From: Blasia pusilla
Taxonomy: Eukaryota
DNA length: 64,000 nt
Direction: 5' to 3'
Assembly (NCBI GenBank): GCA_050084515.1
Contig: CM114271.1
Span: 22,320,001 to 22,384,000, forward strand
A program made the position numbers and the translations under genes. Position 1 is the stretch's first letter; each line of letters starts with the position of its first letter. Under the pieces are notes generated by a model. It did not search any database and was not told the origin of the DNA. It saw nothing but the letters and a program-made list of their open reading frames with translations. Positions 1-64,000 of this stretch are shown piece after piece.

Positions 1-1213
1 GTCTAGGCTCGTCAGAAAGAGAAGCTAATAAGTCTAAGTGTTGCAAGCGACAACCTAAGACTTAAGCCAAAAAGAGGAATTGCGGGTTAGCTACCAGAAC
101 GCGATTCTGTGTTAAGGGGTCGGCTTCCCAGAACTTAACATCAATAAGGTTTGCGTTGATGAGGACATCAACCTTCTAAGGAGGGGTGAGTGTCGCGACC
201 CTCATAACCAAACAACACCAAACGCGCGCCAAGCGAAACATCGTAACTCAAAGGAACTCACGCCGCGAGGTTTGCGCTTTGAGAGGCGTTTGGAAGAGTC
301 TCTTGAAAAGTCTAAGAGACTAAACGCGAACAGAGTTGTGCGTTTCATGCGTTAGTGGTCGCGACCAGGAAACCTAGACCAAACGCGAGCCGAGACTTGA
401 GATGAGTTGAGTCTTGGAGGTTGGTTGCCAAAGAGGTGAGAACGATTTGGAACACGGCTAGCGTTTGGGAGAATCTGACTGTGTTTAGGACCATAACGTT
501 GAGCTCCAAGATGCGTTCGGGACAAGTAAGGGCGCGTTGAAAAGCTGATCTCGAGATGCTTCCAACGCACAAAAGATCTCAGCAAACGCATAAGTACAGG
601 CTGAGATATTGGCCAAAAACGATTCAGAGAGCAATCGGGTTGAGGGCCAATTGGAGGGGCCCGGGTGTCTTTCCTAAATGTAGGGGGCCCCGGAGATCCC
701 AGAAGTACTAGTAAGGGGAGTACCTTCTCTGAGATGTCTCGGGAAACGAAACCCCACTTTGGGCGCCAAACGGCGTTTGAGGCACGGGATGAAACGGGAG
801 TTTGGCGCGAAACCCAAACCCAAACTCCGATCCAAGGGAGTGGACTTTGTACGCCACACTTGGATTCCAACCCGAGATTCACTTCGTGCAAGTCTTGGTG
901 AGGAACTCATTGGATGTTCATCGGACAGTTGGAACCGCTAGGCGCGAAACGCCGTTTCAGGTTCTTGAACCGACCAGAAAGTTTGTCCCAAGTCTTTCGA
1001 GACTTGCCCGTGTTGGAAACCGCGAAACTAGGAAGGTTGAGCTTGAAGAGAGAGTTCGAGACGAGAACTCGGAAAGTCATCCCGCTGATTGATCCAAGAC
1101 CCGACTAACCGAAGTGCGTGTTTGGATGCAGATCAACGTTGAGAGCGTGACCTACTGAACGCACGCTTCCGCAACAAACAAGATTAACGTTCAAGGAGAG
1201 TAGGCGCACGACA
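1..1213 (-). mobile_element. 5' end of an LTR retrotransposon (probable Ty3/Gypsy): ~440-bp LTR at ~771-1213, tRNA-Lys PBS at 752-768, internal region running off the window
   Basis: Minus strand reads TGGCGCCCAAAGTGGGG at 768-752, close to the complement of the tRNA-Lys 3' end (TGGCGCCCACCGTGGGG). The putative LTR starts TGTCGTGCG at 1213, exactly where Helitron helicase homology begins. The LTR 3' end reads CG rather than CA. Confidence 0.55.
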
Positions 1214-29955: not shown

Positions 29956-32900
29956 ATGAACAGCCTTCAAACGGGGGCTCTCGAAGGCTTCGCTATGTGG
30001 ATATCCTTTCGGAGGCCTTTGAACAGAGCATTTTTTCGTACACTTGCTTTCCATCGGTCTCCGCAAGAGTTTAAAGGAGATCCTCTGAATGACAGTGTTG
30101 GCCAGGGTGCGAAACGGCCTGCCAAATTTCTAGACACAAGCTCTAGGTCCGGTGATGGCGATCAGCAGCCCCGCTGGTCCCAAGGAAACGAAATTTCCGA
30201 GTCTGGCCAGATCCGCAGACAAAATTTCGCCGGTTTTCATGAAAGAAATCACAGGCACGATGGATTGGAAGGACAAAGGAGGAGCTCGGAAGGGCTGGGA
30301 AGAGCTTCAAGATACTCACAAAGTAGGGAAAGGGATTCTCCAGGCACCGAGGCCCATTTCGTAGGCGAGAAGGAGTCCATAGGAGAGAGAAGGGGGATAG
30401 AAAGAACTCCTGAGAGAAGGCTGGATGGTTCTGGTTCCCGACGCCAACCTGATGTGGCTCCCCGTTCTAGAGATAGCGGAGATCAGCACTACGGATACTC
30501 GTTCCGAAATTCGAATTCAGAGGTGGGCGAATTTCGTAAAATAGATACTGGAAGTTCTCGTGGGAGAAGCGATAGACATGATTTCGTGGAAAGAGAAAGG
30601 AGGAGATTGGATTCGCGAAGTAGCGAGTCTTACAGAGGACGAAGTTCAGTTGACACAGACAGCAGGCAGATGGGTTCTCAAGTGACTGAGGAGTCGGGTG
30701 CTCGGGCCCAAACCTATCCGCGTCGTCAAGAAGGAGAGAAGAAATGGCAATTTGCCGTGAGGAAAAAGCAGCAGCTCGCCGGATGGAGTCGAGGCCAGAC
30801 AAGGAAGTCGACGCAGAAGTTTGTGGACGATGAAGATCTCGGGGACGAACCGCTGGGAGATGAATGGAGGCAGAAGAAGATGGCGTGGCTTTGCAAGGAG
30901 ATCCCAGGGCTCAAACCCCGTGGAGTCGTGACTATTTTGAATGAGCAACGTAAGTGGATAAATGCGACAGACGTTAAGTACATCGTGCAGCATTTACTCC
31001 GGATCGGCCAGTTCTTACGCGCCCACAGAGTAAGTGCTGGTCGTCTCACATCCGAGTCTGTATGGTGATTCTCAACAATATTCAGGCAAACGTTGTGAGC
31101 AATTTTCGCAGGTCCGAGCAGCAAGCTTCTGCACATTCAAGACTATATAACTTGGTCGGTGTCGTTTGATCAAGCCATTCAACTTGGCAGTGGATCTCCC
31201 AGCATCGAACGGATATCTCCGAGCAATACCAGCTGGGTTTAGAATGACATTTTCCACACATAGGTTTTTGTAAGAGCAATAGGCACTCGAAGAACTGACT
31301 GTCGACTCTGTGTGTTGTTTTTTGGAGCAGGTTTTAAAATGGGAGATGCAGCAACCTTGGTACGAGTACAACTTCGAGCTCAATACTGCAGTGGCCAATT
31401 CTCTCGGAGAAAATAATAAGCTGAGCAGGACAAGGGACCTTTACGATCTGATGATTCAGAATAGAAAGGTGCCGGAGCTTTCCACCTATGTGTTACTGAT
31501 AAATTGCTACATTGCAGATGGGACCAATGAAGCTCTACAGAAAGCTGGGAGTCTTTTTAATCAAATGATTCAGATGGGGGGTTATGAACCCCCACCAACT
31601 CTCCGCTACAAGCTATTCAATGCCCTTCTACAAAAGAACTTTACGCATCTTGACCAGGCGGATGCAGTGTTCGGAGGCATAAAAAATAGTGGCTTGGCAG
31701 TTAGTGAAGAGATGTACAACTCACTCATTCTCTTACACGGAACAAATGGAAATCAAGAGAGAGTGGACTTCCTGATAGAGGAGATGAAGAAGACAGGTCT
31801 GAAGGTTGGGGAGGAAGTCTACGCTGCCATTATAAGAGCGTGTGTCAAGGATGGAAATATCATGAAAGGCGAGCAGGCATTCACTGACCTTAAAAGTGTT
31901 TGGGAGAAGCAGATTCCCTCTGTCTATGCCTCCTTGATCAAGATGTATGGTGACGCAGGTTTGCCAGAGAAAGCTTTGGAGAGTTTTGAGGAGATAAGAC
32001 TCAGCGGGATAAGTTTGAGCATAAATATTTATGAACCAATAATTGCAGTATTAGCTGCAGCTGGAAAGAGACAGCAAGCTGAGAAGCTCCTGAAGGAGGC
32101 TCAGGAAAGAGGCCTGCCATCAATGCAGGGATGCTATAATGCTGTAATGGGATTATACTCGAAGTCTGGGTTGATACATGAGCTGGAGACAACCTTTCAG
32201 GACATGCAGAGTGCAGGTTGCAAGCCAAATGCTGCGTCCTTCAATGCAGTTCTGGAGGGATATGTAAAGTGCGGATTTCTGGAAAAAGCAGAGGCTGTTT
32301 TTCAGGGCATGAAGATTGAGGGTAGAATTGGTCCTAACCAGAGGACCTTTGAGATAATGATTAAGGCTTATGGTGATGCAGGAAACTCAGAAAAATTGAA
32401 GGAAATGTTCCATGAACTGGCTGGCAGGAAGATGGCTGTTCCACATGGAGCAGCTGAAGTCTTAGAGAAAGCTGTCAGTCCAAAAAGGCTGGATGCGTTG
32501 AAAAACTCGAATCTCAAGCTTAACAGAAACCAAAGAGAATTGCTGGCAGGAGTGCTCCTGGGCGGAGCGCGTGTAGAAAGTCATGATAAGAATCGGACTT
32601 ATGAAATTCACTTTGGATTGGATCCTGATAGTGAAGGTCAATCTATCTTGATTAAACATTTGTATGAGCAGTTCTCTGACTGGTCAAAAGAAGCTCCGAG
32701 GGAGCAGCCCATGAGTGACATCAAAGATCCTCTGAAGTCTAAAACATTGCTAACTTTCCAGACTGTAAGCCATGGAGCTTTCCGGTTTTTTGCCCATCAG
32801 TATAGACCGGACAGGAAAGCGAAGATTCCAAGACTTATACATCGATGGCTCAGTCCTCAGGCCCTTGCTTATTGGTATATGTATGGGGGTTACAGGTGCC

Positions 32901-33145
32901 CTCAGACTGGAGGTATAATCCTGGATGCATCACCTTACAGTGGCAAGGAGCTCATGCTGGTGGTGGATGCCCTCAAGGCAAGAACCATTGATTGTGAGTC
33001 CAAGAGACAGAGTAAGGAAGGGCTGGTTCTTCGTGTTACAGGCAAGTCTGCGACTTGGCTTTGGAAATTAATGGAACCCTTTATTATTCCTGGGTTGAAG
33101 GTTTCATTGAAGCCTGAGGACAGAAGTGTCTGTGAACCTAGTTAG
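29956..33145 (+). CDS. OTP51: P-type PPR protein with C-terminal LAGLIDADG domain (OTP51-like organellar splicing factor); exons 29956-31029 and 31331-33145
   Basis: Contains KKMAWLCKEIP...ILNEQRKWI and RAHR|VLKWEMQQPWYEYNFEL across a GT-AG phase-0 intron. Tandem ~35-aa PPR motifs follow (e.g. YNSLILLHG, FNAVLEGYVKCG), then LAGVLLGGARVES...FRFFAHQY...IPRLIHRWLSPQALAYWYMYGG. The start may be 29956 or 29995. Orthology versus paralogy is not established. Confidence 0.9.
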
Positions 33146-38054: not shown

Positions 38055-41000
38055 TTATCCAAGAATTTCTTTATATACTACATTCCGTGTATAGTCACCT
38101 TCCTTGTTTGAATGTTCATCGCTTCCAATTGTAATGTGGATAGAACTTCTCTTCCCTACTCTAGATAATGCTACATACAATTGGCCATGAGAAAATACTG
38201 GAGTAGGCAAGTAAATGCCCACCTTTTGCAAAGTTTGACCTTGGGACTTATTGGTAGTCATAGCAAAAGCCAGTCGAATAGGGAATTGAAACCTACGTAA
38301 ATCAAATGGCAAACCTGAATCTGATGCAGTCAATGGGATACGTGGAACAAAAATTCGACTCCAATATTCTTCCCTGTGATGATTTCATCATCTATGCAAT
38401 GTTGCATAAATCCACGAATCACCAATCTTGTCCCATTTGCTTGTCCATGTGCTCCATTCATGTTTCGTAACAACATGATTGGTCCCCCAATCTTCAAACA
38501 CAATCGGTGCGGAGGAAGTCCTGAAGGCAAGCATGTGTTCAAAAATTCAGTTGGATATACATGAGTCATCCCCTCGTTTGGAATAGAGTCAACGCTGAGG
38601 TAAACTTGCTCATGTACACAAAATATAATGAGTTTGTAAGAAAAGGTAATATTAATATCCAAACTTGTAATTGAATAACTCTTTTATAAAAATTAAAGGG
38701 ATTACCTCTCTTGGAAACCGCGACATTACGCTTGCATTTATGTCATCTACATCTTGATTTCTTAGAGTCAAAATTGCCGTATCTCTCAAGAAATCAATGT
38801 CATTGAATTCGGATGGAAATTTTCGATATATCAAATCAAGAAGATCACATATCGTATTACTTCTAGTAACAATTTCAGATGGTAATTGTATAAAATTTTC
38901 TCCCAAATGTGGATGCAAAGGTACACGACCCTCTCCCACTTCTAATAACCAATCAGCAAAAGCTTGTTGTTCACTACGCAAGTGACCTTCCAACCTCTGA
39001 ACTCGCATGTTTGTAGTAAACTTCATGACCTTTACATTAGACCAAAGAGATGACCTCTTTATGGTGGCTTGGATGATTTGCGGCCGATCCCCATGACAAA
39101 CAACAGGAAACACTTGACGAAAATCACCACCAAATACCATAAGTTTTCCACCAAATGGTAATTGTCGGTGTTCATCAGAAACAACTCCCATAATATCTTG
39201 TAAAGTCCGATTTACAACCTCAAATGCGTGACGATGAGCCATAGGAGCTTCATCCCATATAATAAGCATTGCATCACGGATTGAGCGCGCTCCATCACTA
39301 TTAACCAACAAACTACAGTAAGAAAAGGGGAGTAAATTAGAACTTGTGCCACGGTGGAGGAAATTAAACTTTTGCATCACGAAGGTGGCACTTACTTGTA
39401 AGTAGAGCTCTCATGAAGATTGATGGGGATTTTGAATCGCGAATGTGCAGTACGTCCTCCGTCTAACAATAGAGCAGCTATTCCAGATGACGCCACAGCC
39501 AAAGCTATACCTCTTGCACTCCTTACACTTGCAAGAAGAAGATTATGTAAAAATGTTTTTGCCGTTCCACCTGGGCCATCGATGAAAAAGAATTTTGGAG
39601 ATGGTGGAGCATCCAAGCATATTTTATCAAGCTCATCATGTATAGCTCCCAAATAATACGTTGTCCTTCATTTAGACATGTTTCTCCTAATTGCACTTGC
39701 TCAAATAGTTCTTCCGTATCATACAAAAGCTCTCGTTCCTCCAAATATGAATTTGATTGAAGTCGTTGGAAGTCAGGTTGGGGCATGTCTGGAAAGTCTC
39801 ACAGTCTTTTCCTTGATCTTGTAAATAATAATGGACTTCCAACAATGCAGTATTAACCATAGCATCTTCAACGGGAAGATTAGGAATTCCAATTTTCTAC
39901 AAAATAGGATGATAACCCAAAATTTGTAGACTTTTGAATGCTCAATAGAAGATACTATTAAGAATTAAAAAAATATGCAAGGGTATTAATGAATTCTTAC
40001 CATACGCCGTTCATATAAGAGATCTTCTACCATTAGAACCAAAAATTAACTCCAGAGTGTTGCAGGTTGAGCAGATGTGTTGTACGCTAGAATAATTGCA
40101 AATAGGCGACAAAGTGAAGAACCTGTACGAATTGTAGAAGCTTCTTCAAAGCAAGAGAAAACTTCCCTATTATCCTCAAGAAGTCCCAATTGGATAGAAG
40201 CCTCCTTGAATGTTGGACATAATATCCCATTAACAGTTCTCAAACATTCATACGTAGTTGATCCTCGAACATGATGGAGAAGTAATCTCAACCAATGACG
40301 TTCTCCTTCACCTATGAGGAATTAAACTAAATGAGTTTATCCCAACATGTAGATACACTGCTTTAGAGGTGGAATATAAAAGGAATTATGTACAAAGAAG
40401 TTGTGAGCATTTACCTGGATGAGTAAGGTATAAGCCACAACCATTTTGTTTTTGTACCCTACGAATCCATCTCTTGTTACTCCAACGATAATAAGAAGGA
40501 AAATCTATGTATAGATATTTTCGAGCACTGGAGTCAGATAGATTGGTTGCAAACCATTGGGTCAATGTTGTCTCTCTTTTTAGTTGCAAAATATCTCCAG
40601 GAGCGTCAACATCATTGAAGTAGACTAATTTTTGTTCTGGAAGATAGACTGCTAGTCGTACGATACTTGGAAGTTCAGCATGTAGACTAAACTTAAAGAG
40701 ACGCCAACATGCTTCCGAAGAAGATATATATCTAGAATAATGAGAATTCCAAGTATTTGAGTGAGAAATTACATGAGAAGGACTCTCCCATAATTACATG
40801 AAGTTGAGAAATAAAATATAATGCATCAGAGAAGTCAATCCATAAAATCATACCTTGCATCAAGATATGACATTGTCTCGTCAATAACTTCGATTACATT
40901 GGATGTATCCATATCCTTTGACAACTTAAATGACACAGCATCAGATCCTTTATAAACATATTTGTATAAGTACTTGACAGCAAAAACACTACTTGTAATC

Positions 41001-43820
41001 TCCAAATTAATGTGACAATCAAATAGGATGCATAACATCAGATTGTAAGGTACAACCCAACGATTATCCAATGAATATTCGCTCTTAATTATCGCCCTTC
41101 CATTCTCCAATCTACAAAAATACAATAACAATCGTAATTAATCATGAATGAATGTATTAGAAGGAATCATGCATACATATGCCTAAAAAATAAAAGGGTC
41201 CTCACCTACGATATATCGGATAACCATCTTATGTTTCGGTACTGTTGGCCGCAAAAGCTTTAGGATAGCCTTTTGTACATTTTTTTGTTTCCTTATCCAT
41301 ACACATATCATTTGGATTTAATGGTCCACATGGATCGTGAACCACGCAATTAGCAACGGTAGAATACAACCTTAGATGGGTAGATTGATCAGGGATTTCA
41401 GTTGAAATGATTCGATCATAATCACTTGTGGTACGTGGTTTATCCTCACGACCTAAAATAATAAGGACATGCACATGCGGTAAGCCTCTTTTTTGGAATT
41501 CCACCACATGGATGCATCCTACAACTCGGCCTAATATCTGTTTCTTGATGATAAGTCGTAACAACTCCTTCTTTTTCTTCTCAAAAACCCGCACAACCAA
41601 ATCTGGTCGGTCTACAGCTGATTGGCCCGGTAATAGGGCTGAAGTAATCTCCTCCCACTTTGGATTGCATGTCATGGTTAAGAAGTAGTCAAGCTTCCCA
41701 AAATGTCGTACAATTGCCATTGCATCCTGATACAATTGATGCATATGACGTGGCCCTCTAGTAAAAGAAGAAGGTAATATAATTCGTTTCCCAAGCCTTC
41801 GGCTATCCGCATCTTGTCGATGCATGGCATCCTTTACACCTTGATATAATTCAGCCCTCAACTCCTTATGATTTAAGCGCACCCATAATAATCGTTGCAT
41901 TTCCACAATGGCATAGAGGTCAACCATATATTCTTGAGTAAGTCGACGAAGCCGCAATAAGCGATTGTCATCTTCTCCTCCAACCTGAGTTTGAAGTCGA
42001 AAACATGCAAATTGCAAGGCCGTAACACATTTTGTTCTTCTTTCCTCAACAATATCACCATAAACTATGTCCTCATCCATGCAATCATCTGCAGGTTCAG
42101 GATGTCCCTCCTCTCCATGAATAATGTGGCCCAATCGTCGGGATTCCCTACAACCTTCAATTCGCCCAAAGGGTATTCCAGGATGCCAATCTGCTTCACC
42201 ATAGATAAATAACAAAACAAAGTGTAAGGGAATATATGCTTCATTGAGGTCGGATATACGTTTGACTCCTCCTCCATGTAGTCGTACAATTATATCACGA
42301 TGCTCAACGTGTTCACTTCCATCACCCGGAAAAATAGCATCAACTTCAAACGCAATTAGTAAGTTATAACGCCTTGCATCAGGTCTTCTCTTACTTGCCT
42401 TGAGGATAATCCGCACATTAAGATCACTTGCTTCATATGCCATATGACGAAAGATCTTCACATATGGATTGCATTCATGTAACATGTCTTGGAGACCTTT
42501 CAAAATATCCATATTAAGAATAGAAGATGTAGACATAACTCTAGCACGATTTTCCAATTCATTTGTAGTATCATGGATGTATAGTTGAGCAAATTGAGGA
42601 TGTCCCCCAATATCAGGATGTAAAGGTCCAATGGAATGATAGATCCCGCCTTGGACCCTAAAGTGTCCAGTGCCACCAATTTGTTCGTTTACATGTACCC
42701 CGGTAGATGCAAGTTGAAGTGCCGAATTATAAGCTCGAGCATGAGTAAGAAAATGAACGCTTCTAGGACTAGCACCCGAAATCAAGGATTTCAGAAATGG
42801 AGGAGATGATCTCAAGAGAGGTAAGTATATTCTTCCATGGCCACAACACATGCCATATGGTGAGTCACCAAACTTAATACCTTTGACCACTTCACATTTC
42901 CAATGCAAAGCACGACATGAGGGACATATCTCTGTCATAGAACCTAATGTATGACGACCGCTGGTACGATTCAAACTCCTTTGTAATTGCAACTTTCAAA
43001 TATCACTTTCTTGAAAATTTGGCCTCCTTGCAAGATTGAGAGTTGTATTTAATCTTACAACTCTATCAAGGGTAGACGATCCATAAATTATAGAAGTGTT
43101 TGGTACAGTGGCACGTTGTGGAGATAACAAAACTCCATTAGGAGACATGGCATCTACTCTTGACCTTGATTCATCCCCGAGTTGGGAAAAAGTTGACGAA
43201 TTGTTGAAAACTTCATCTGGAATAGGAATAGGAAGAGTGGTCGACGAATTGTCGACAACTTCATCTTGAACTTGAATAGGAAGAGCGGTCGACGAATTTT
43301 TTACAACTTCATCTTGAATTGGAATAGGAGGAGTGGTAGGTAACTCAACTTGTGGTGGCCCAATCGTGGATGTATTCTCGATAACTTCATGAAATGCATT
43401 GTCAACTAACTCGAGTCTTGGCGATATATAAATATAATCCGTCGAGTGTTCGCTCACTTCTTGATTTTCTTCTACTATTATTCCATCTTCATTTGAAGGC
43501 CTGAGAAAATATGTCAAAATATTGATAAGAATAAATACAAATCAAATATGGAGTAAATCAAGTAGTTATGAAGTGAATAGTTAGATAAAGGTACCTATTC
43601 AATGGAATAGGTGCAATACTCTCAGGCTGAACTTGACCATTAAGCCCTTTCCTTCTTTTTCTATACTCTCGATAGTAATTCCTCTTTTTTTCTTTGAGAG
43701 CTTCCATTCTATCAGCCCGAATAGCACGCTTTCGTTTTTGGGCTTCGCCACGTAGAACCTTCCAAAAGTCACGTATATTGACAGGATTCAATGGGATTGG
43801 AAGTCTGGAACAACACATGA
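38055..43820 (-). pseudogene. Helitron RepHel (Zn finger, HUH/Y2 Rep and PIF1 helicase), multi-intron and disrupted
   Basis: Motifs: CPSCRALHW...CCGHG; VVEFQKRGLPHVHVLI (HUH); KYLYKYVYKG (Y2); FFIDGPGGTAKT (Walker A with G>A); [31 protein letters not shown]. In-frame stop at 41229-41231 and several frameshifts. Confidence 0.93.
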
Positions 43821-57179: not shown

Positions 57180-60100
57180 CATGTGCTAGAGCAACCCATG
57201 CCATCATCCACAACTGGAGTCATCACCTGTGACTGACCTACCATAGTCAACCAACAAAGATAAGCATATGCATGCCAACCACGCACCATTTCCTTATCAC
57301 TCTCTCCGTGCCATCGAGCTCCTATGTCGTCTCTCTAACTCGCACATGGGTTACATCTCAACCCATCCGCATCTTGGTTCAACCGACCTGGCCTATGAAC
57401 CACCTCAAACTCATACTCTTGTAGTAATAGAGCCCATTGGCAAGCTTTCCCGTACGCTTGTTGGACTCCATCAACCACCTCAACGGCTGATGATCAGTGA
57501 TAAGTGTGAAAGGGTTGCCGAATAAATAGCACCTGAAATATACCACTGCCCACACTGCAGCCAAGCACTCTCCCTCACAAGAGTTGTACTTTGCCTCTGC
57601 AATGTTGTTCGATCGGCTCGCGTAAGCCACAAAAAAATCCTTTTCCTCATCATCTCTCTGAGTAAGCACTGCTCCTAGACCCAACATGCTCCAATCCGTA
57701 TGTAACTAGAATGGGCGACCCCTAACCGGTCTCTGTAAAATGGGTGAGTACGTCAACCTGTCCTTGAGCTCCTGAAATGCTTGCTCTTGATAATCTCCCC
57801 ATAACCAAACCTGATCAAGTCTCGTCAACAAGGTCAAAGACTTTGCCATCGCACTAAAACCCTTGACATACCATTGATAGAAGTCTTCCAGTCCAAGAAA
57901 CGCTCGGACTCGACTCACATATGTAGGGCGTGGAATCTACGCAATAGCCTCCATCTTCGTCTGCTAAACGCCTAACCCTCTCGGGTATATGGTGTGTCCC
58001 AAGTACTTAATCTGCTCTTGAAAGAATATGCACTTGGTTGGATGTAACTTTAGTCCATGTAACTGCAATCGCCGAAACACCTCCCCCAGGTGTCGCTCAT
58101 GCTCCTCAACCGTGGAACTGAAGATAAGAATATCATCTATGTAACATGGTACAAAATCCAAGCTAGCCATAATCATATCCATCACTCGCTAAAACTGTGC
58201 AGGCGCGTTCTTCAACCCAAATGGTAAGAACTGCCACTGATACAAGCAATCTCTCTCGAAGTGATCTATCCCCTAGAATGCTCTCTTCTCCCTCTCCTCC
58301 AACCTGATAGGAAGCTGATGATAGCCAGCACGGAGATCTAAAGTACTGAAGATCTTTGCATGCCCTAGGGCATCAAAGATCTCCTCAGGAGTAGGCATGG
58401 CGTACCGATCTGACCTCATTTGTCGGTTGATAGGACGGTAATCTCCACACATCCGCCTATCCGTCCAATTGCCATACATATCCTTCTTCGCAGACATGAC
58501 TGTGGCAAATGCATACTCCCCATGTGATAACTCCACAAGTCCTGCCTCCAACAAGTCCTGACTCCTGCTCTCAATCAAGGCTCGCTCCATATCAGAATAC
58601 TTGTAGGGTCGATGAAAGATCGGCGTATCACTAGCCAACTCAATCCATTTCTCGTGACCCTTTAGCGTACCCAAGTCTCTCATATTGAAGGAAAAACAAC
58701 TCACATGCCTTCTCAAAAACCTATGAACTCGCCGTCGCTCTCCTCCTATCAACTTGAGAGCTATCACGGGCTCCCAAGTCTCCATCGTGACCTCACTCAG
58801 AGAGGACGCAACCTCTGGCTTTGGTTGCTATGTAGCAATCCTAGCCACCTCCGCAACAGCCATTCCACTTTGACCTCCTACACCATGCTCCACATCCAAA
58901 AAATGAACATGCGCTACTCTAGCCCCCTTTGCACTCTCTGCTCGAACAATGTCCCAGGAAGTCCATGGGTGCCTATCTCTCCTCGTCCCGCCCCCAACCA
59001 ATGCTTGTATAGACCCTGTAGGAAATGGTCCAACTTGTGGACGTGACGACATGGATGACATTTGCATCCCTCTTTGCTCTGCCATACCTAGGCTGACTAT
59101 CCATGTGAGACAGTTGAGGTCCATTGCCTACCCCAACACCTGTCTCCGAGATGCCTCAGTCATACCTGGCACCGCCGTAGTACCTGTAGCAAACCCCATG
59201 GTGCTCTTGCACTCATCTACTGTAGGCTCCTCCAATGCTCCGATCACCTCATCCCAAATCATGCCTAGCCCTCCTTGATGAAAGGCATGGGATTCTGGGA
59301 AGCTCACCAACGTAGGTAAGGCTGCCCTCAACTCCCCCATCCTATTGGCCATGCCAATGGTGGTCTATCATCACGCGTCATCACTTGAGATCGACGCCCT
59401 GAGCCCAAAATAGCATCCACTGTGAGATGTGGTGCTCTTGGACTCCATCGTATGCTCGACTTAGTACCTTTGATGGTATCAAGTTCATCCACCATAGTCG
59501 TGGACGATGGGCATATGATCCAACTCTCGCTGCATCTAGCAACACAGCAAGTTCCAACCAGGATCCCACCTGATGCAAACTTGTCATCACACGTGCACGA
59601 GTGTCTCCCAACAACGGCACGTTCTCCAAAATATACGCCGAAGAACATGTCTGACTCTCTTGCAAGTGTCGTACTACTTGCAGCATCTCCAAAAATATCC
59701 TTGACCTCGGATCCTGCAATCCAAATCCTCGGCCCGTTGATGAATGACCCTGACATGGCCATCCAGAAATCACCAAATGAATGGTGCCAACTCTATCCAG
59801 ATCCTACGCCCCCACCAAAGAGATGTCGGCGGGTAGTGTATGCTAATATCCCCGTAGTGCAAATACCAGCAACAACTCATGATACCTCTGGACCAATCTC
59901 GCTACGTGACGTAATGATACTCGCCGTACGGTCTCGTTACGTCTCTCCACATAAAGGTACTGTTGCACCCGTCTGCCCGCCTGAAATATAGCAGCCAATC
60001 CGGTGCTAATCCCTCTGAAGAGATCTAATACCCTAACACCCTCCTCTGAACACTGCCACACAATGGGTGTGGTATCAAGTGGGGTCAGTGTCTCCACTCC

Positions 60101-60570
60101 AAGGGCCCGCTTGCCACCTGACTCTCGCTGCTCCGGGATAAAGGCATGACTCCATGTCTGCCTCATAAGGTCGTCGGCACTTCTCTGTAGCTCTCGAGTC
60201 GTATCCCATAATGGTGAAGAGGTCTTGCCAAAATGGGAAGAGACACCCGCCATGGCCTGTCTCTCCGTGGGACTATCCGCTACTGGGACATCCTCAACAT
60301 GTGCATTCCCCTCCAACAATTCTTCTGGCCAGCTAACACTACCTATGAAAGTTGCCAACATGGTCACAGACTCGCCTCGTGATCGACCACCTCGTCCCGC
60401 AAACTGCACGGGTAACTGACTCATCCGCCCATCACCTGACCGCCACCCTGTCTGATAAGAAACGGTCTTCTCCCATAAGTCAAGGATGAATCCTAAGGGA
60501 TATAACACTGTACTCCCAACCAACACATCGTACGACTCAGCTGGTGTCGTAAATCTGAGAAATTCCAAAC
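57180..60570 (-). mobile_element. Ty3/Gypsy pol remnant with order protease C-terminus, C5 DNA methyltransferase, RT, RNase H; truncated at both ends
   Basis: Protease tail: YDVLVGSTVLYPLGFILDLW. RT: RMCGDYRPIN, DRYAMPTPEEIFD, FSTLDLRAGYHQ, LPFGLKNAPAQF, YIDDILIFS. RNase H: LHTDWS, VAYASRSNN, YLFGNPFTLITDHQPL. Many stops; no integrase present. Confidence 0.92.
59090..60040 (-). pseudogene. Retrotransposon-encoded C5-cytosine DNA methyltransferase domain (frameshifted)
   Basis: Motifs occur in canonical order: I VLDLFRGISTG, II YLYVE, III LPADI, IV LVISGWPCQGHS (Cys codon 59755-59753), V DPRSRIF, VI YILENV, VIII HRPRLWW, IX EPTVDECKSTMGF, X RRQVLG*AMD. Confidence 0.9.
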
Positions 60571-61119
60571 TCACTCGTTGGTCCCTCATTTTTATGGTTG
60601 CAAACCATCCGACAGTCCATGGTTCCTTGGTTCGCAATCCGTTGGAAATCGATGGGTTGCAAAATAAACAGCATCAAGATAGATCAACACAATCGACAAG
60701 AAAAAAAAAATTCAGAAAAAGTTTACAAAAACCATCATGGTTCAAAAACTTCTTGTCTTTTATTACATCCGAGGGAAGTTAGGAAATGTACATTTGATCT
60801 AGTCTATGATTTCTTGAGCCTCGTCACCTACAAATTTACTCCTAACTCTTCTATGTTCCTGTACAAAAGGAATGTCTTGGGATACAAGTGGCTCCTTTGG
60901 CTAATTGTAGACGGGGATTGTAAATGTTGGGGAATTTGAGAGCCTTGGTCCCCCCTTAGGTACACCATAACGGTCCCATGTAACATGATTTGAGTCCCAA
61001 CGCCTTGCTCGACAATAAATCTTGTATTCTCTGTAAGATGACACCCATCTAGTATCAATATGTGCTCCGTCCTTGAAAACAACTAAATCGGTTGTTCCAC
61101 TTCTCCTGTTCCACAACCA

Positions 61120-63900
61120 CTATTGATAGTTTCGGATAGTAGGAAGTGAAAATGGTGTCACTATCAATAGTGGTTGTGGAACTGGAGGAGTTGGCTTTGG
61201 AGGAGAGTTGTATACTCCCACTAGCCTCTCATAATCCACCCTTGCCTCTTTGCAAACGTCAAAAAGTTCTAGCCTTCCCTCAAGGCAGAGAATGTTCCTT
61301 CCACTCTGCCAAGCGCCTGTGATACTCGCCCCTGATAGGCCCACTAAGTCAAAGACCAAGTCACCCGGCCTCGAGCACAGCTCTATGAGTGTTTGCATCA
61401 AGGCATGTGATTTCTCCCTTCCTCCAAATTCCGGGGGGAATTGTAGAGACTATCTAAGTTGTACCCATCGGAGCATGGATCCACTGGATCCGGGATCTGG
61501 AACACCTGGAAGTTGTGCTCGGGCCTTACAAAGCACTAGACAAATGAGTGGTCCATGTGTGAACAAGCACGTGGAAAATAATGTTAGCAAAAAGAAAAGG
61601 GTAGTTGACCAACTCTCCATAAAGTGACACAATGTGCAACCCGTCGGGATCCGACGGGTTGCTCATTTGGCTAGACAGAATAGCAACCTGTCGGAGTCTG
61701 ACGGGTTGCTTTTCAATACGTCCTACTAGTCCCAAGTGATTACCAACCCATCCAAACTTGGCCTATAGGCCTGACAAAAGAGCAACCTGTCGGAGTCTGA
61801 CGGGCTGCTTTACAACTCTAAGAGGATTCTTCGGCTATGAGCAACCCGTCTGAATTTGACAGGTTGCTCATTTTGCTGGACACAACCGCCAACTGTCGGA
61901 GTCCGATGGTTGGCTTACAACTGAATCAAATTGTTCAAAGTTGAGAAGTTCCTAATATGAGAGCAACCCTTTGCTTTCAGACGGGTTGCATCACTCCAGA
62001 AACAAGTGGAAAAGCAATGCTATTTGCAACACGTTGGATTCTGACGGGTTGCAATCACTGGAGACATGTTGGTGAATTTGCAACCCGTTGCTTTCAGACG
62101 GATTGCATCATTGCAGACACAAGTGCAAAAGGAATTCTACTTGCAACCCGTCTGGTTCCTAGGGTGAATTTGAAACATGTTGGGATCCGACATGTTGCAT
62201 GCAGAGATGCAACCCGTCGGAGTCCGACAGGTTTTATTTCTGAACAAACTCAATTCGTTCAAAAAGTGCACTTACCCGGACTTGATTTGTCGCCGATCTG
62301 AGTGGATAATCATTTTTTATGAACCATGATTGCGCCGTCGTCCACTTCAGTGACCTCTTCATGCCATGAAGGTTGAAGAGCTCGTCTTCGCTCCCTCCAG
62401 TAAGGACCAAGAAATAACCCCTGTCACTGAGATACGCGTCAGCAAAAGAAAACAACAGAGCGATATGGTCATAGGAAAGTGGGACATTCCAATATGGGAC
62501 ACTATCAGAGGGATTGTTGTCCCACAAGCAAAACCCAGAAGGCAAATATCCAATGAGGAGATCCACCACCGCCTCCTCAGCAACCCCATGCACCGTCCAG
62601 GGGGCGTGCCCATTTCGATGGAGTTTTTGCCCTAGCACGGTCAATTTCTCGATGGCAGGTATCGACTCCTGAGAACTGAAACTCTACAATTTATCAACAA
62701 GATGAGTCAAGTAAAGAAGGATATTTGTCCTAGTGATCGTTTCCCTGTGCCTGCCCAAGGATGATGGAGTGTATTCCACATCCTTATCTCCTCCCTCGGA
62801 CGAACCAGGCACCTCTCGCTTTCGCTTCTCTCGAGTGTGTTTTCGGCTTGTTGGAGTCTCTATTACCTTAGACTCCACATGAGTTTTCTTTGATGAGGAC
62901 GAGGTCTGGCCCTCTCGCCCCTCTCGCCTCGACAAATTTGCCTCTCGCCTTGAACACTCAGCCTCTTTTCTCGAAGACTCGGCCTCGGAATTCCTCGATC
63001 CCCTCGCCCTGGCTTTCAAACCCGTTGTGGATTTATCTTTGGCAGTGACAACCTTTGCCACCAACTTCGTTGTCTCGAGGGCTTGCTCCTCCGCATCTCC
63101 TTCAAAAAATTTGTCAAGCTTCACAAAGTTTGGAATGTCGTCCCTACATGTGACCACTGCATCATAGATCACGTGTAGATTTTTTACTGTAATGTCCTTT
63201 GGATCGTTGAAGTCCAACCAGATTAGAAAATTTATTACCTCCTAGTCAAACATGCCCTGTCCCATCTCCATGTCATACATGGAAAATCCCTCTCCATGAG
63301 GCAGAGAAGCCCACAATTTGTAGGCTACCAAAAATTTTGCGCCAAGTACCTGCATTCACACAATTGATAAGGTACATGTACACCATCCGCTGGGGAGCTC
63401 TTTGTCGAGATAACTCAGCCACCTGGTCCTGAAAATCCCACTTTGTTTTTGCAAAATCCCATTTTTTGGCGTATATTTCCTCGACCAGATCTGCCTCAGG
63501 GAGGATGTAATTCTTGAACATCATCCGGAATCTTGGATTTTCCGTCGGCTTATCTCTTATGTCATCAAGCCATAGTTCAAAATCTTCTGCAGCCTCTAGG
63601 TTTGCTTCCTCTAGAATTGGCTCAATCTTCTTCAACTTTGCTTGTAGACCCACAATCATGGACTTCCCGAGAAGGCGCAACGCATCCCAGAATGAATGAT
63701 CATTCCCGTAGCCAATGGAAGATCACTGGATCTCAAACTCCCAGAGGGTGGTGTGCCACCCGCTTCTGTGCCTCAGTGCCCTCGAGACTCGTTTTAATCA
63801 GTCGGATTCGCCTAAACTCGGATATGCCTGACAGCGCAAACCTATGCACGCGATCTAGAGACAATTTCTCTCCGATCTGACCCTATGGATCCTCGTCTCT
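61120..63900 (-). pseudogene. Spliced, partly decayed gene ending in a beta-class amino-DNA-methyltransferase-like (N4C/N6A) domain; probably transposon-borne; 5' part runs off the window
   Basis: Exon ~62670-62276 has VDLLIGYLPSG (motif IV position)...FADAYLSDRGYFLV. Exon ~61500-61120 has EKSHALMQTLIELCSRPGDLVFDLVGLSGASITGAWQSGRNILCLE, comparable to KP..L...LI...S..GD.VLDPF.GSGTT..AA...GR..IG.E. A GTAAGT donor lies at 62275. Upstream open frames are at 62684-63217 and 63273-63680. Confidence 0.65.
61636..62235. repeat. Array of about 11 copies of a 27-bp palindrome (consensus GCAACCCGTCGGAnTCCGACGGGTTGC) with variable spacers
   Basis: Copies start at 61636, 61683, 61782, 61841, 61888, 61963, 62026, 62080, 62143, 62172 and 62209. 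Copy 1 has a perfect 12-bp stem. A further copy lies at 60634-60660. Confidence 0.9.
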
Positions 63901-64000
63901 CTTCCTCTGGCGCTTGATTATCGCCTAGAGCTCCTTGTAAAACTCCGGGCCAAGTTCGGGGTTGAGAATTGCAATGTAATGTTGCATCTTGCTTGCAGTG

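Follow-up and report, generated by a model that had tools for sequence, protein, structure and literature searches.

The 64,000-nucleotide stretch of the Blasia pusilla genome analysed here (assembly GCA_050084515.1, contig CM114271.1, positions 22,320,001 to 22,384,000 of the forward strand), hereafter called the window, carries a methyltransferase-like feature near one end. A first-pass annotation, made from the sequence alone, had described it as an intron-containing gene for a prokaryote-type, beta-class DNA amino-methyltransferase in a transposon context. Our analysis indicates that the feature is probably a decayed copy of a multi-copy gene belonging to a eukaryotic family with a prokaryote-derived, PF01555-like fold, likely a pseudo-methyltransferase. 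All coordinates are window positions, and the feature is read on the minus strand. Its two recognisable parts are listed below.

62683-62276, minus strand: exon A, an open stretch of 136 codons corresponding to the N-terminal half of a beta-class methyltransferase-like domain (motif IV to motif VIII region).
61449-61120, minus strand: exon B, an open stretch of 109 codons comprising motifs X, I and II, followed by a proline-rich tail and a stop codon.

Two exons resembling beta-class methyltransferases

The peptide segments quoted in the first-pass annotation were all found on the minus strand. The motif-IV-like segment V-D-L-L-I-G-Y-L-P-S-G of exon A is located at 62566-62534, and the motif X/I/II-like run of exon B (R-E-K-S ... 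P-G-D-L-V-F-D ... L-C-L-E) at 61419-61279, with R-E-K-S as motif X, P-G-D-L-V-F-D-L-V-G-L-S-G-A-S as motif I and L-C-L-E as motif II. The permuted order that defines the beta class, as previously proposed for this locus, also holds: exon A lies upstream of exon B on the same strand, and the family to which they belong aligns with YhdJ from motif IV to motif II.

With regard to exon B, the Pfam family PF01555 matches it with an E-value of 3.6e-4 over profile positions 165-218 of 221, at a score (21 bits) that does not reach the gathering threshold of 26.7 bits. Five PHROG families named 'DNA methyltransferase' match it as well (best E 8.6e-6), as do the NCBIfam entry PRK13699 (E 0.0088) and, in a sequence search of the solved structures in the PDB, M.RsrI (E 0.03) and DpnA (E 0.11). 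Exon B scores 25.4 bits on a locally built profile of 92 verified enzymes from prokaryotes and phages, on which 40 shuffled versions scored at most 2.8 bits, and it is approximately 50% identical over 35-38 residues to 11 metagenome loci.

Exon A has no match in Pfam, PHROGs, NCBIfam or the PDB sequence search, where only unrelated weak matches appeared, and it scores -3.2 bits on the local profile of the 92 prokaryotic and phage enzymes. On a profile of 51 eukaryotic relatives from which the window was excluded, it reaches 43.2 bits, the best of 300 shuffles being 12.3 bits, and it is the sole match of this exon-1 profile among the 1311 open reading frames (ORFs) of the window. Searches of the relatives against exon A with tblastn gave E-values of 1e-7 to 2e-6 over 95-109 residues. 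The language-model neighbours of exon A are class I S-adenosylmethionine (SAM) methyltransferases (0.81-0.84), among which a PF01555 cluster comes 24th; we treat this as a lead. Word-indexed searches of large protein collections with the window exons alone returned nothing.

The best PDB sequence match of exon B falls in its proline-rich tail (61165-61285, minus strand; residues 55-94) and is a sperm-associated microtubule inner protein, with an E-value of 4.1e-7 summed over two repeats that each reach about 0.05. We treated this match as a probable low-complexity coincidence.

Relatives and intact gene structure

An exhaustive phmmer search with exon B gave six matches, of which P0006 is the sole true relative, the other five being tandem-repeat artefacts. 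The alignment of exon B with P0006 led to 11 eukaryote-like metagenome contigs. An exon-A-like ORF is present upstream, on the same strand, in all seven of these loci that have at least 470 nt of upstream sequence; the remaining four are too short on that side to show exon A. A profile search with the exon-1 alignment added 25 longer database proteins, all unnamed and none with a precomputed Pfam domain. P0006 obtains 26.5 bits against PF01555, just under the cut-off, and P0024 obtains 14.7 bits; nine of ten longer relatives scanned have no match to PF01555. A further candidate, a 110-codon ORF on a bacterial contig of 62% G+C from a metagenome-assembled genome (L076:4890-5219, plus strand), shares a 10-residue identity with motif X of the family in no methyltransferase context and was dismissed as probable chance.

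The relatives disclose what an intact gene looks like. Exon 1 encodes the central sheet as well as the motif IV loop; in seven of seven relatives it has a phase-0 GT at its end, homologous to position 62276. It is followed by an intron of about 100 nt and by exon 2 (about 90 codons), in which a strand and a target-recognition-like stretch are joined by motif X and, at the end, by motif I. The next intron, of phase 1, splits a glycine codon; exon 3 supplies the helix after motif I together with motif II, and exon 4 carries a conserved P-S-P-P-K motif. The spliced models are open and divisible by three in all six loci modelled. As the exon-1 and exon-2 parts are contiguous in a single ORF in 9 of the 14 database relatives fetched, the two parts belong to one product. 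The co-occurrence of the two exons in other copies, on which the first-pass annotation had made its proposal depend, is therefore observed in every testable metagenome locus and in these nine database ORFs.

Homology to YhdJ and predicted fold

Escherichia coli YhdJ is a bona fide beta-class N6-adenine enzyme. The hhalign alignment of the family with it has a probability of 91% (E 1.1e-6) and extends over 194 columns that take in motifs IV, X, I and II; it sets D-L-P-E-N of the family on D-P-P-Y-N of YhdJ. As controls, the non-permuted methyltransferase PrmA gave 37.7% over 25 columns and DusB gave 0.1%. The N-terminal half of the family aligns with the N-terminal halves of prokaryotic enzymes at 65% (E 5.9e-5; reversed template 0.6%), and the full domain aligns with prokaryotic enzymes over the C-terminal 65 columns only, at 98.4% (reversed template 0.2%). 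Since the match of the family profile to prokaryotic enzymes is limited to some 60 C-terminal residues, we do not name a donor lineage.

An AlphaFold2 model of the relative P0011 was made with a 42-row alignment. Over residues 251-450, the mean predicted local distance difference test (pLDDT) score of 10-residue blocks lies between 52 and 94. The first Foldseek matches of this model in the PDB are CcrM (E 3.9e-12) and M1.HpyAVI (template modelling score 0.74-0.78, normalised to target length); the other leading matches include M.BceJIV, M.MboIIA, M.RsrI, rotifer N4CMT and M.PvuII. Type III Mod subunits come lower in the list, as do MT-A70 proteins, whose chains occupy ranks 43-50. The model thus predicts a beta-class Rossmann-like fold for this relative. 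The fold and the profile match proposed beforehand were accordingly both recovered, the fold as the superposition of P0011 on beta-class enzymes and the profile match in the weak form described above for exon B.

Altered motifs under purifying selection

The catalytic loop of the relatives reads D-L-[VI]-I-A-D-[LIY]-P-E-[NG]-L-P-V-P and is almost invariant; a looser form across relatives is D-[LIYMV]-P-[ED]-[GN]. Every relative seen lacks both the first proline and the aromatic residue of motif IV. Motif I usually takes the form D-[CVLW]-x-A-[AGT]-T-G, in which the phenylalanine is absent, the first glycine is usually absent and the last glycine is constant. It reads D-L-S-A-S-T-G in P0006 and D-L-V-G-L-S-G in the window, and a few relatives keep G-x-G, as A-G-T-G. 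The relatives, P0006 and the window alike retain the lysine of motif X, the aspartate and final glycine of motif I and the glutamate of motif II. Three features of PF01555 members are lacking in the family: a score above the gathering threshold, (D/N/S)-P-P-(Y/F/W/H) in motif IV and F-x-G-x-G in motif I. The expectation that a consensus of the relatives would restore (D/S)PPY, DLPY or FxGxG was not borne out, as the consensus reads D-[LIY]-P-E-[NG] and [AT]-[AG]-T-G.

For comparison, we collected 111 prokaryotic or viral ORFs with the motif X-I region of the family; all ten that were scanned score above the PF01555 cut-off. The canonical [DNS]-P-P-[YFWH] is present in 97 of the 111, and the D-x-P-E form in none. 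The ratio of nonsynonymous to synonymous substitution rates (dN/dS) is 0.17-0.22 in the four pairs of relatives with a calculable dS, one of which is near saturation. The family is under purifying selection, with a dN/dS of about 0.2.

Motif IV of amino-methyltransferases holds the flipped base in position through its prolines and aromatic residue, which are needed for catalysis. For this reason, we infer that the family is either a pseudo-enzyme or has an altered chemistry. The core of the family is probably a prokaryote-derived, permuted beta-class DNA amino-methyltransferase fold, kept under purifying selection, that has presumably lost catalysis; it may act as a pseudo-methyltransferase, that is, as a nucleic-acid- or SAM-binding module in a larger protein, and not as a canonical writer of N4-methylcytosine (4mC) or N6-methyladenine (6mA). 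Of the two options given in the first-pass annotation, a mobile 4mC/6mA writer or an inactive derivative, the latter fits better, as the family departs from the canonical writer.

Copy number and expression

Reads from three RNA runs and one DNA run bearing the same species label were mapped at a likeness of at least 90%. Of 9832 DNA reads mapped, 77 are at least 99% alike to the window. With both orientations summed, the DNA depth is 200-850 over the DNA methyltransferase (DNMT) region of the adjoining retroelement; it amounts to 88-148 in exon B, 16-24 in exon A and 8-50 upstream of the latter. These depths are not calibrated to single-copy sequence, and no copy number follows from them. At the exon-B positions listed, nearly all DNA reads differ from the letter in the window (51 of 52 at 61241, 76 of 78 at 61257). 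As the DNA reads are mostly diverged and their depth is high, the window stretch is one diverged member of a repeated family.

Among the 527 RNA reads mapped, none is at least 99% alike to the window. The RNA depth is 5-21 over 61004-61671, in an orientation that fits minus-strand RNA, and 0 over exon A. Among the joints listed for the three RNA runs, none crosses the proposed intron. RNA from paralogues is present in all three runs. Paralogues are expressed, and the window copy is not detectably expressed in the sampled reads.

Splice sites and decay of the window copy

The following features bear on the state of the window copy.

62270-62275, minus strand: splice donor GTAAGT in phase 0, directly after exon A, with a GT at the homologous position in seven of seven relatives.
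61627-62242, no strand assigned: palindromic hairpin array of units of about 27 nt, GCAACCCGTC-N7-GACGGGTTGC, which fills most of the intron.
61410-61556, minus strand: probable decayed 5' part of exon 2 (beta-strand and target-recognition-like stretch), in another frame.
61099-61185, no strand assigned: perfect inverted repeat of 23 bp, in which the frame of exon B stops; its fold as DNA has -27.8 kcal/mol (z -8.4).
60553-61119, minus strand: non-coding stretch downstream of exon B, covered by minus-sense RNA reads of paralogues at a depth of 3-7 (first mate on the plus strand).

The spliceosomal intron that the first-pass annotation had placed between the two segments is supported in part. 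Its donor agrees with that of the relatives; the acceptor of the window copy is uncertain, no RNA read spans the joint, and the relatives begin exon 2 about 55 residues earlier. An in-frame AG is found at 61451-61450, just before exon B. The 826 bases between exon A and exon B consist mostly of the palindromic array, which is lacking in the short introns of the relatives. Eight hairpin units lie in the intron and one at 60634-60660, so that the window has nine, all within 60634-62235, where 0 were expected. Among the DNA reads, there are many opposite-strand and skipping joints between hairpin units. The units are abundant in genomic reads and resemble a foldback repeat, or one of the miniature inverted-repeat transposable element type, that invaded the intron.

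With tblastn, roughly the first 55 codons of exon 2 could not be detected in the window copy. Three relatives give weak matches, collinear and in frame 1 (E 0.24, 1.8 and 4.6), which are suggestive of a decayed 5' part of exon 2 at 61410-61556, no more; the stretch contains an in-frame TAG at 61538-61536 and requires a frame change near 61440. RNA reads from paralogues resemble the window up to 61556 and then diverge. The phase-1 intron inside motif I is absent from both the window copy and P0006.

At the other end, the RNA reads of paralogues part from the window at 61136, in the loop of the inverted repeat. A 30-letter consensus of these diverging reads, which we read in frame, contains no stop. 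The inverted repeat is probably the breakpoint of an inverted duplication or rearrangement that truncated the window copy. Downstream of exon B, an AATAAA is found at 60764-60759 (minus strand), and we infer that 60553-61119 corresponds to a 3' untranslated region.

In the motif IV loop of the window, G-Y-L-P-S-G, the conserved aspartate and glutamate of the family are both gone. With these two residues lost, the 5' part of exon 2 no longer readable, the intron swollen, the frame broken at the breakpoint and no transcript detected, the window copy is most likely a non-functional, inactive pseudogene. The motif loss, the decay of exon 2 and the lack of near-identical RNA reads agree with the earlier description of a degenerate and probably inactive copy.

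Neighbouring elements and upstream region

The methyltransferase-like feature adjoins a second methyltransferase-bearing element.

57379-60673, minus strand: decayed DNMT-bearing Gypsy-type retroelement with a protease-like stretch, a C5 cytosine methyltransferase, a reverse transcriptase and an RNase H, broken by stop codons.

The C5 cytosine methyltransferase of this retroelement matches PF00145 (E 6.2e-8). The retroelement is very high-copy in the DNA reads, and its paralogues are transcribed. It resembles the Gypsy elements bearing DNMT3 that are described in streptophytes, in Klebsormidium (PMC5890265; preprint 10.64898/2026.05.21.726589). At position 60552, 571 DNA reads diverge, and the depth decreases from about 550 to about 220 and continues to fall thereafter. 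Because its high-copy homology ends there, we treated the remnant as a separate element. The transposon context suggested for the methyltransferase-like gene is thus supported as far as the unit is multi-copy and adjoins a DNMT-bearing Gypsy remnant; against it, the homology stops at 60552, and the unit showed neither a transposase or recombinase nor terminal repeats or target duplications.

Elsewhere in the window, an intact ORF of 620 codons with PPR repeats and a LAGLIDADG_2 domain is located at 31283-33145 (plus strand; E 1.4e-34) and is of the plant organelle-splicing-factor type, which marks the window as DNA of the plant lineage. A Helitron is indicated by ORFs with PIF1-like helicase and Helitron_like_N similarity at 38652-39410 and 41229-42995, both on the minus strand.

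The long N-terminus of unknown nature proposed in the first-pass annotation is putative: upstream of exon A, the window ORFs (62684-63722) have no Pfam match, and the window ends at 64000. A profile of the N-terminal module of 41 relatives has no match in the window. In one relative, L001, an ORF (306-1019, plus strand) is located 2-3 kb upstream of the methyltransferase-like exons on the same strand. Its language-model neighbours are eukaryotic clusters (0.96) in which DUF3723 is present in 31-47% of the members, together with a ParB_N cluster (0.92). Searches for ParB or DUF3723 in this ORF with Pfam, NCBIfam, PHROGs and the PDB by sequence were negative, hhalign gave 0.9%, and a single-sequence AlphaFold2 model (pLDDT 35.5) was too poor to search. 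DUF3723 is described as a conserved cargo gene of Starships with unknown function (PMC9156397). Fusions of ParB_N and PF01555 were found in four of ten phage relatives scanned, three of them above the cut-off. The ParB/DUF3723 affinity of the N-terminus of the relatives is a lead.

Comparison with known systems

With regard to prokaryotic and phage beta-class enzymes of PF01555 (CcrM, M1.HpyAVI, M.RsrI, YhdJ), the family has the same permuted order and fold and keeps the motif X, I and II residues listed above. It differs in having D-x-P-E-[GN], or G-Y-L-P-S-G in the window, in place of DPPY/DPPF, and in lacking the phenylalanine and usually the first glycine of F-x-G-x-G. The genes of the family bear introns, the domain lies inside a longer eukaryotic protein, and the members score below the Pfam cut-off. 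The locus descends from the PF01555 enzymes and would work like them, yet it is not to be filed as a functional member of that family.

Enzymes of this origin have been described in eukaryotes. Marchantia DN4MT1a/b is described as an active 4mC writer with the canonical motif TSPPY, and rotifer N4CMT as a canonical-motif 4mC writer with activity shown in E. coli. Both bdelloid N4CMT and Marchantia DN4MT1 are, like the present family, prokaryote-type permuted domains in intron-bearing eukaryotic genes, and the N4CMT structure is among the fold matches of P0011 (rank 28, E 1.4e-8). In contrast to them, the present family has neither the canonical motif nor a chromodomain and is multi-copy, a distinction that we drew from descriptions of the two enzymes and not from their sequences.

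METTL14 and MTA9 are catalytically dead methyltransferase paralogues of the MT-A70 family. The present family is likewise conserved, with the fold retained and the catalytic loop degenerate, which is an analogy only, as these proteins belong to another family and we identified no active partner for the present one.

The DAM domains of DIRS and long terminal repeat (LTR) retrotransposons are another case of prokaryote-derived, adenine-methyltransferase-like domains that have spread in eukaryotic repeats. According to a preprint (10.64898/2026.05.21.726589), they are of the Dam type, with N-P-P, in intronless pol ORFs; their activity could not be demonstrated in E. coli, and DAM-LTRs are reported there as absent from Streptophyta. 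In contrast, all profile and fold matches of the present family are of the PF01555 type, and the unit has introns and lies outside the homology block of the retroelement. We found no description of the family in the literature searched, the supplementary files of which may list such genes.

Alternative explanations

The resemblance of both halves to beta-class methyltransferases exceeds chance. All library matches fall under the curated cut-offs, as they would if the motifs had arisen fortuitously in non-coding repeat DNA; the shuffle and reversed-profile controls, the co-occurrence of the two halves, the kept splice donor and the fold match refute this explanation, to which we give next to no credence. 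Other points weigh against our reading of the feature as a decayed copy from a family of likely pseudo-methyltransferases. Exon A alone is not recognisable by sequence as a methyltransferase, the exon-1 profile found nothing relevant in the PDB by sequence, and neither the two exons nor any relative pass a family cut-off in a curated library. The relative whose model supplies the fold evidence shares about 26% identity with the window exons, and this model has a whole-chain mean pLDDT of 58.5, with a disordered N-terminus and an unspliced in-frame insertion. The motif count in the 51 sequences is partly circular, as the selection pattern required a D/E-x-P-E/D loop; in alignments A2 and A4, made without a loop filter, the same loop is found in the consensus and in the displayed rows of every relative covering the region. 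The reads sampled make up about 1% of the DNA run and between 6% and 12% of the individual RNA runs, and the genome of Blasia pusilla may hold intact paralogues with other motifs. Furthermore, judged from sequence, an active enzyme of unusual chemistry would explain an almost invariant altered loop and a dN/dS of about 0.2 just as well. Such a family of amino-methyltransferases, acting on DNA (4mC/6mA) or on another substrate through the D-x-P-E loop, with a dead copy in the window, would accord with the kept beta-class fold and motif X, I and II residues, with the A-G-T-G of some relatives and with the paralogue RNA in all three runs. We nevertheless consider it unlikely in view of the aromatic residue and first proline missing from motif IV in every relative seen, the missing phenylalanine of F-x-G-x-G and the absence of the D-x-P-E loop from the 111 prokaryotic and viral relatives.

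A different question is whether the decayed gene was carried by a mobile element. It could be a component of an undescribed one, maybe related to large cargo-carrying elements: the DNA depth in every bin of 59000-64000 is well above what the 77 near-identical reads explain, although it was not calibrated against single-copy sequence; clusters of database sequences at least 90% identical reach 13 members; and the neighbourhood is transposon-rich. The language-model resemblance of the L001 upstream ORF to DUF3723/ParB-like proteins and the ParB_N fusions among phage relatives point the same way, but the ParB link is unsupported by hhalign, Pfam and the PDB sequence search, the single-sequence model of this ORF is useless, and the upstream ORFs of the window do not match the N-terminal module of the relatives. 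As the hallmarks of transposition listed above were not found, no second copy is present within the 64-kb window, and several conserved introns together with purifying selection are what host genes show, this explanation is tenable only tentatively. It is very improbable that the methyltransferase-like ORFs form part of the adjoining DNMT-Gypsy element itself, as a dual-methyltransferase, 'EpiLTR'-like retrotransposon. They do lie on the same strand, directly upstream of its protease-like stretch, C5-DNMT, reverse transcriptase and RNase H, and retrotransposons with adenine and cytosine methyltransferases are described in a chlorophyte and in Euglena in the preprint (10.64898/2026.05.21.726589). 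However, the 571 DNA reads that leave at 60552 place the end of the high-copy retroelement there, the unit carries spliceosomal introns, the contigs of the relatives (up to 4.8 kb) carry no reverse transcriptase, and the elements described in that source are of the Dam type (N-P-P), not PF01555, and are reported as absent from Streptophyta.

A broader scenario, which we regard as rather doubtful, would combine several of these leads: an undescribed eukaryotic family derived from a prokaryotic or phage beta-class enzyme, possibly fused to ParB, in which DPPY was replaced by D-x-P-E-[GN]-L-P-V-P, with a new activity or a DNA- or SAM-sensing module as the outcome, and which was amplified to tens of copies in an unrecognised mobile element, with expressed paralogues.

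Implications

The prokaryote-type DNA amino-methyltransferases known to be established in eukaryotes are few, rotifer N4CMT and Marchantia DN4MT1 being the ones named here, and each of these two changed views on eukaryotic 4mC. The locus described here points to a further eukaryotic family with a beta-class fold, which is conserved, intron-bearing and unnamed in the source databases. For annotation purposes, the window copy is a pseudogene, most likely, and should not be counted as a 4mC/6mA writer. The amplification of the family in a plant genome raises the question of its carriage by a mobile element, and its near-invariant altered loop provides a test case for the conversion of a DNA methyltransferase into something else.

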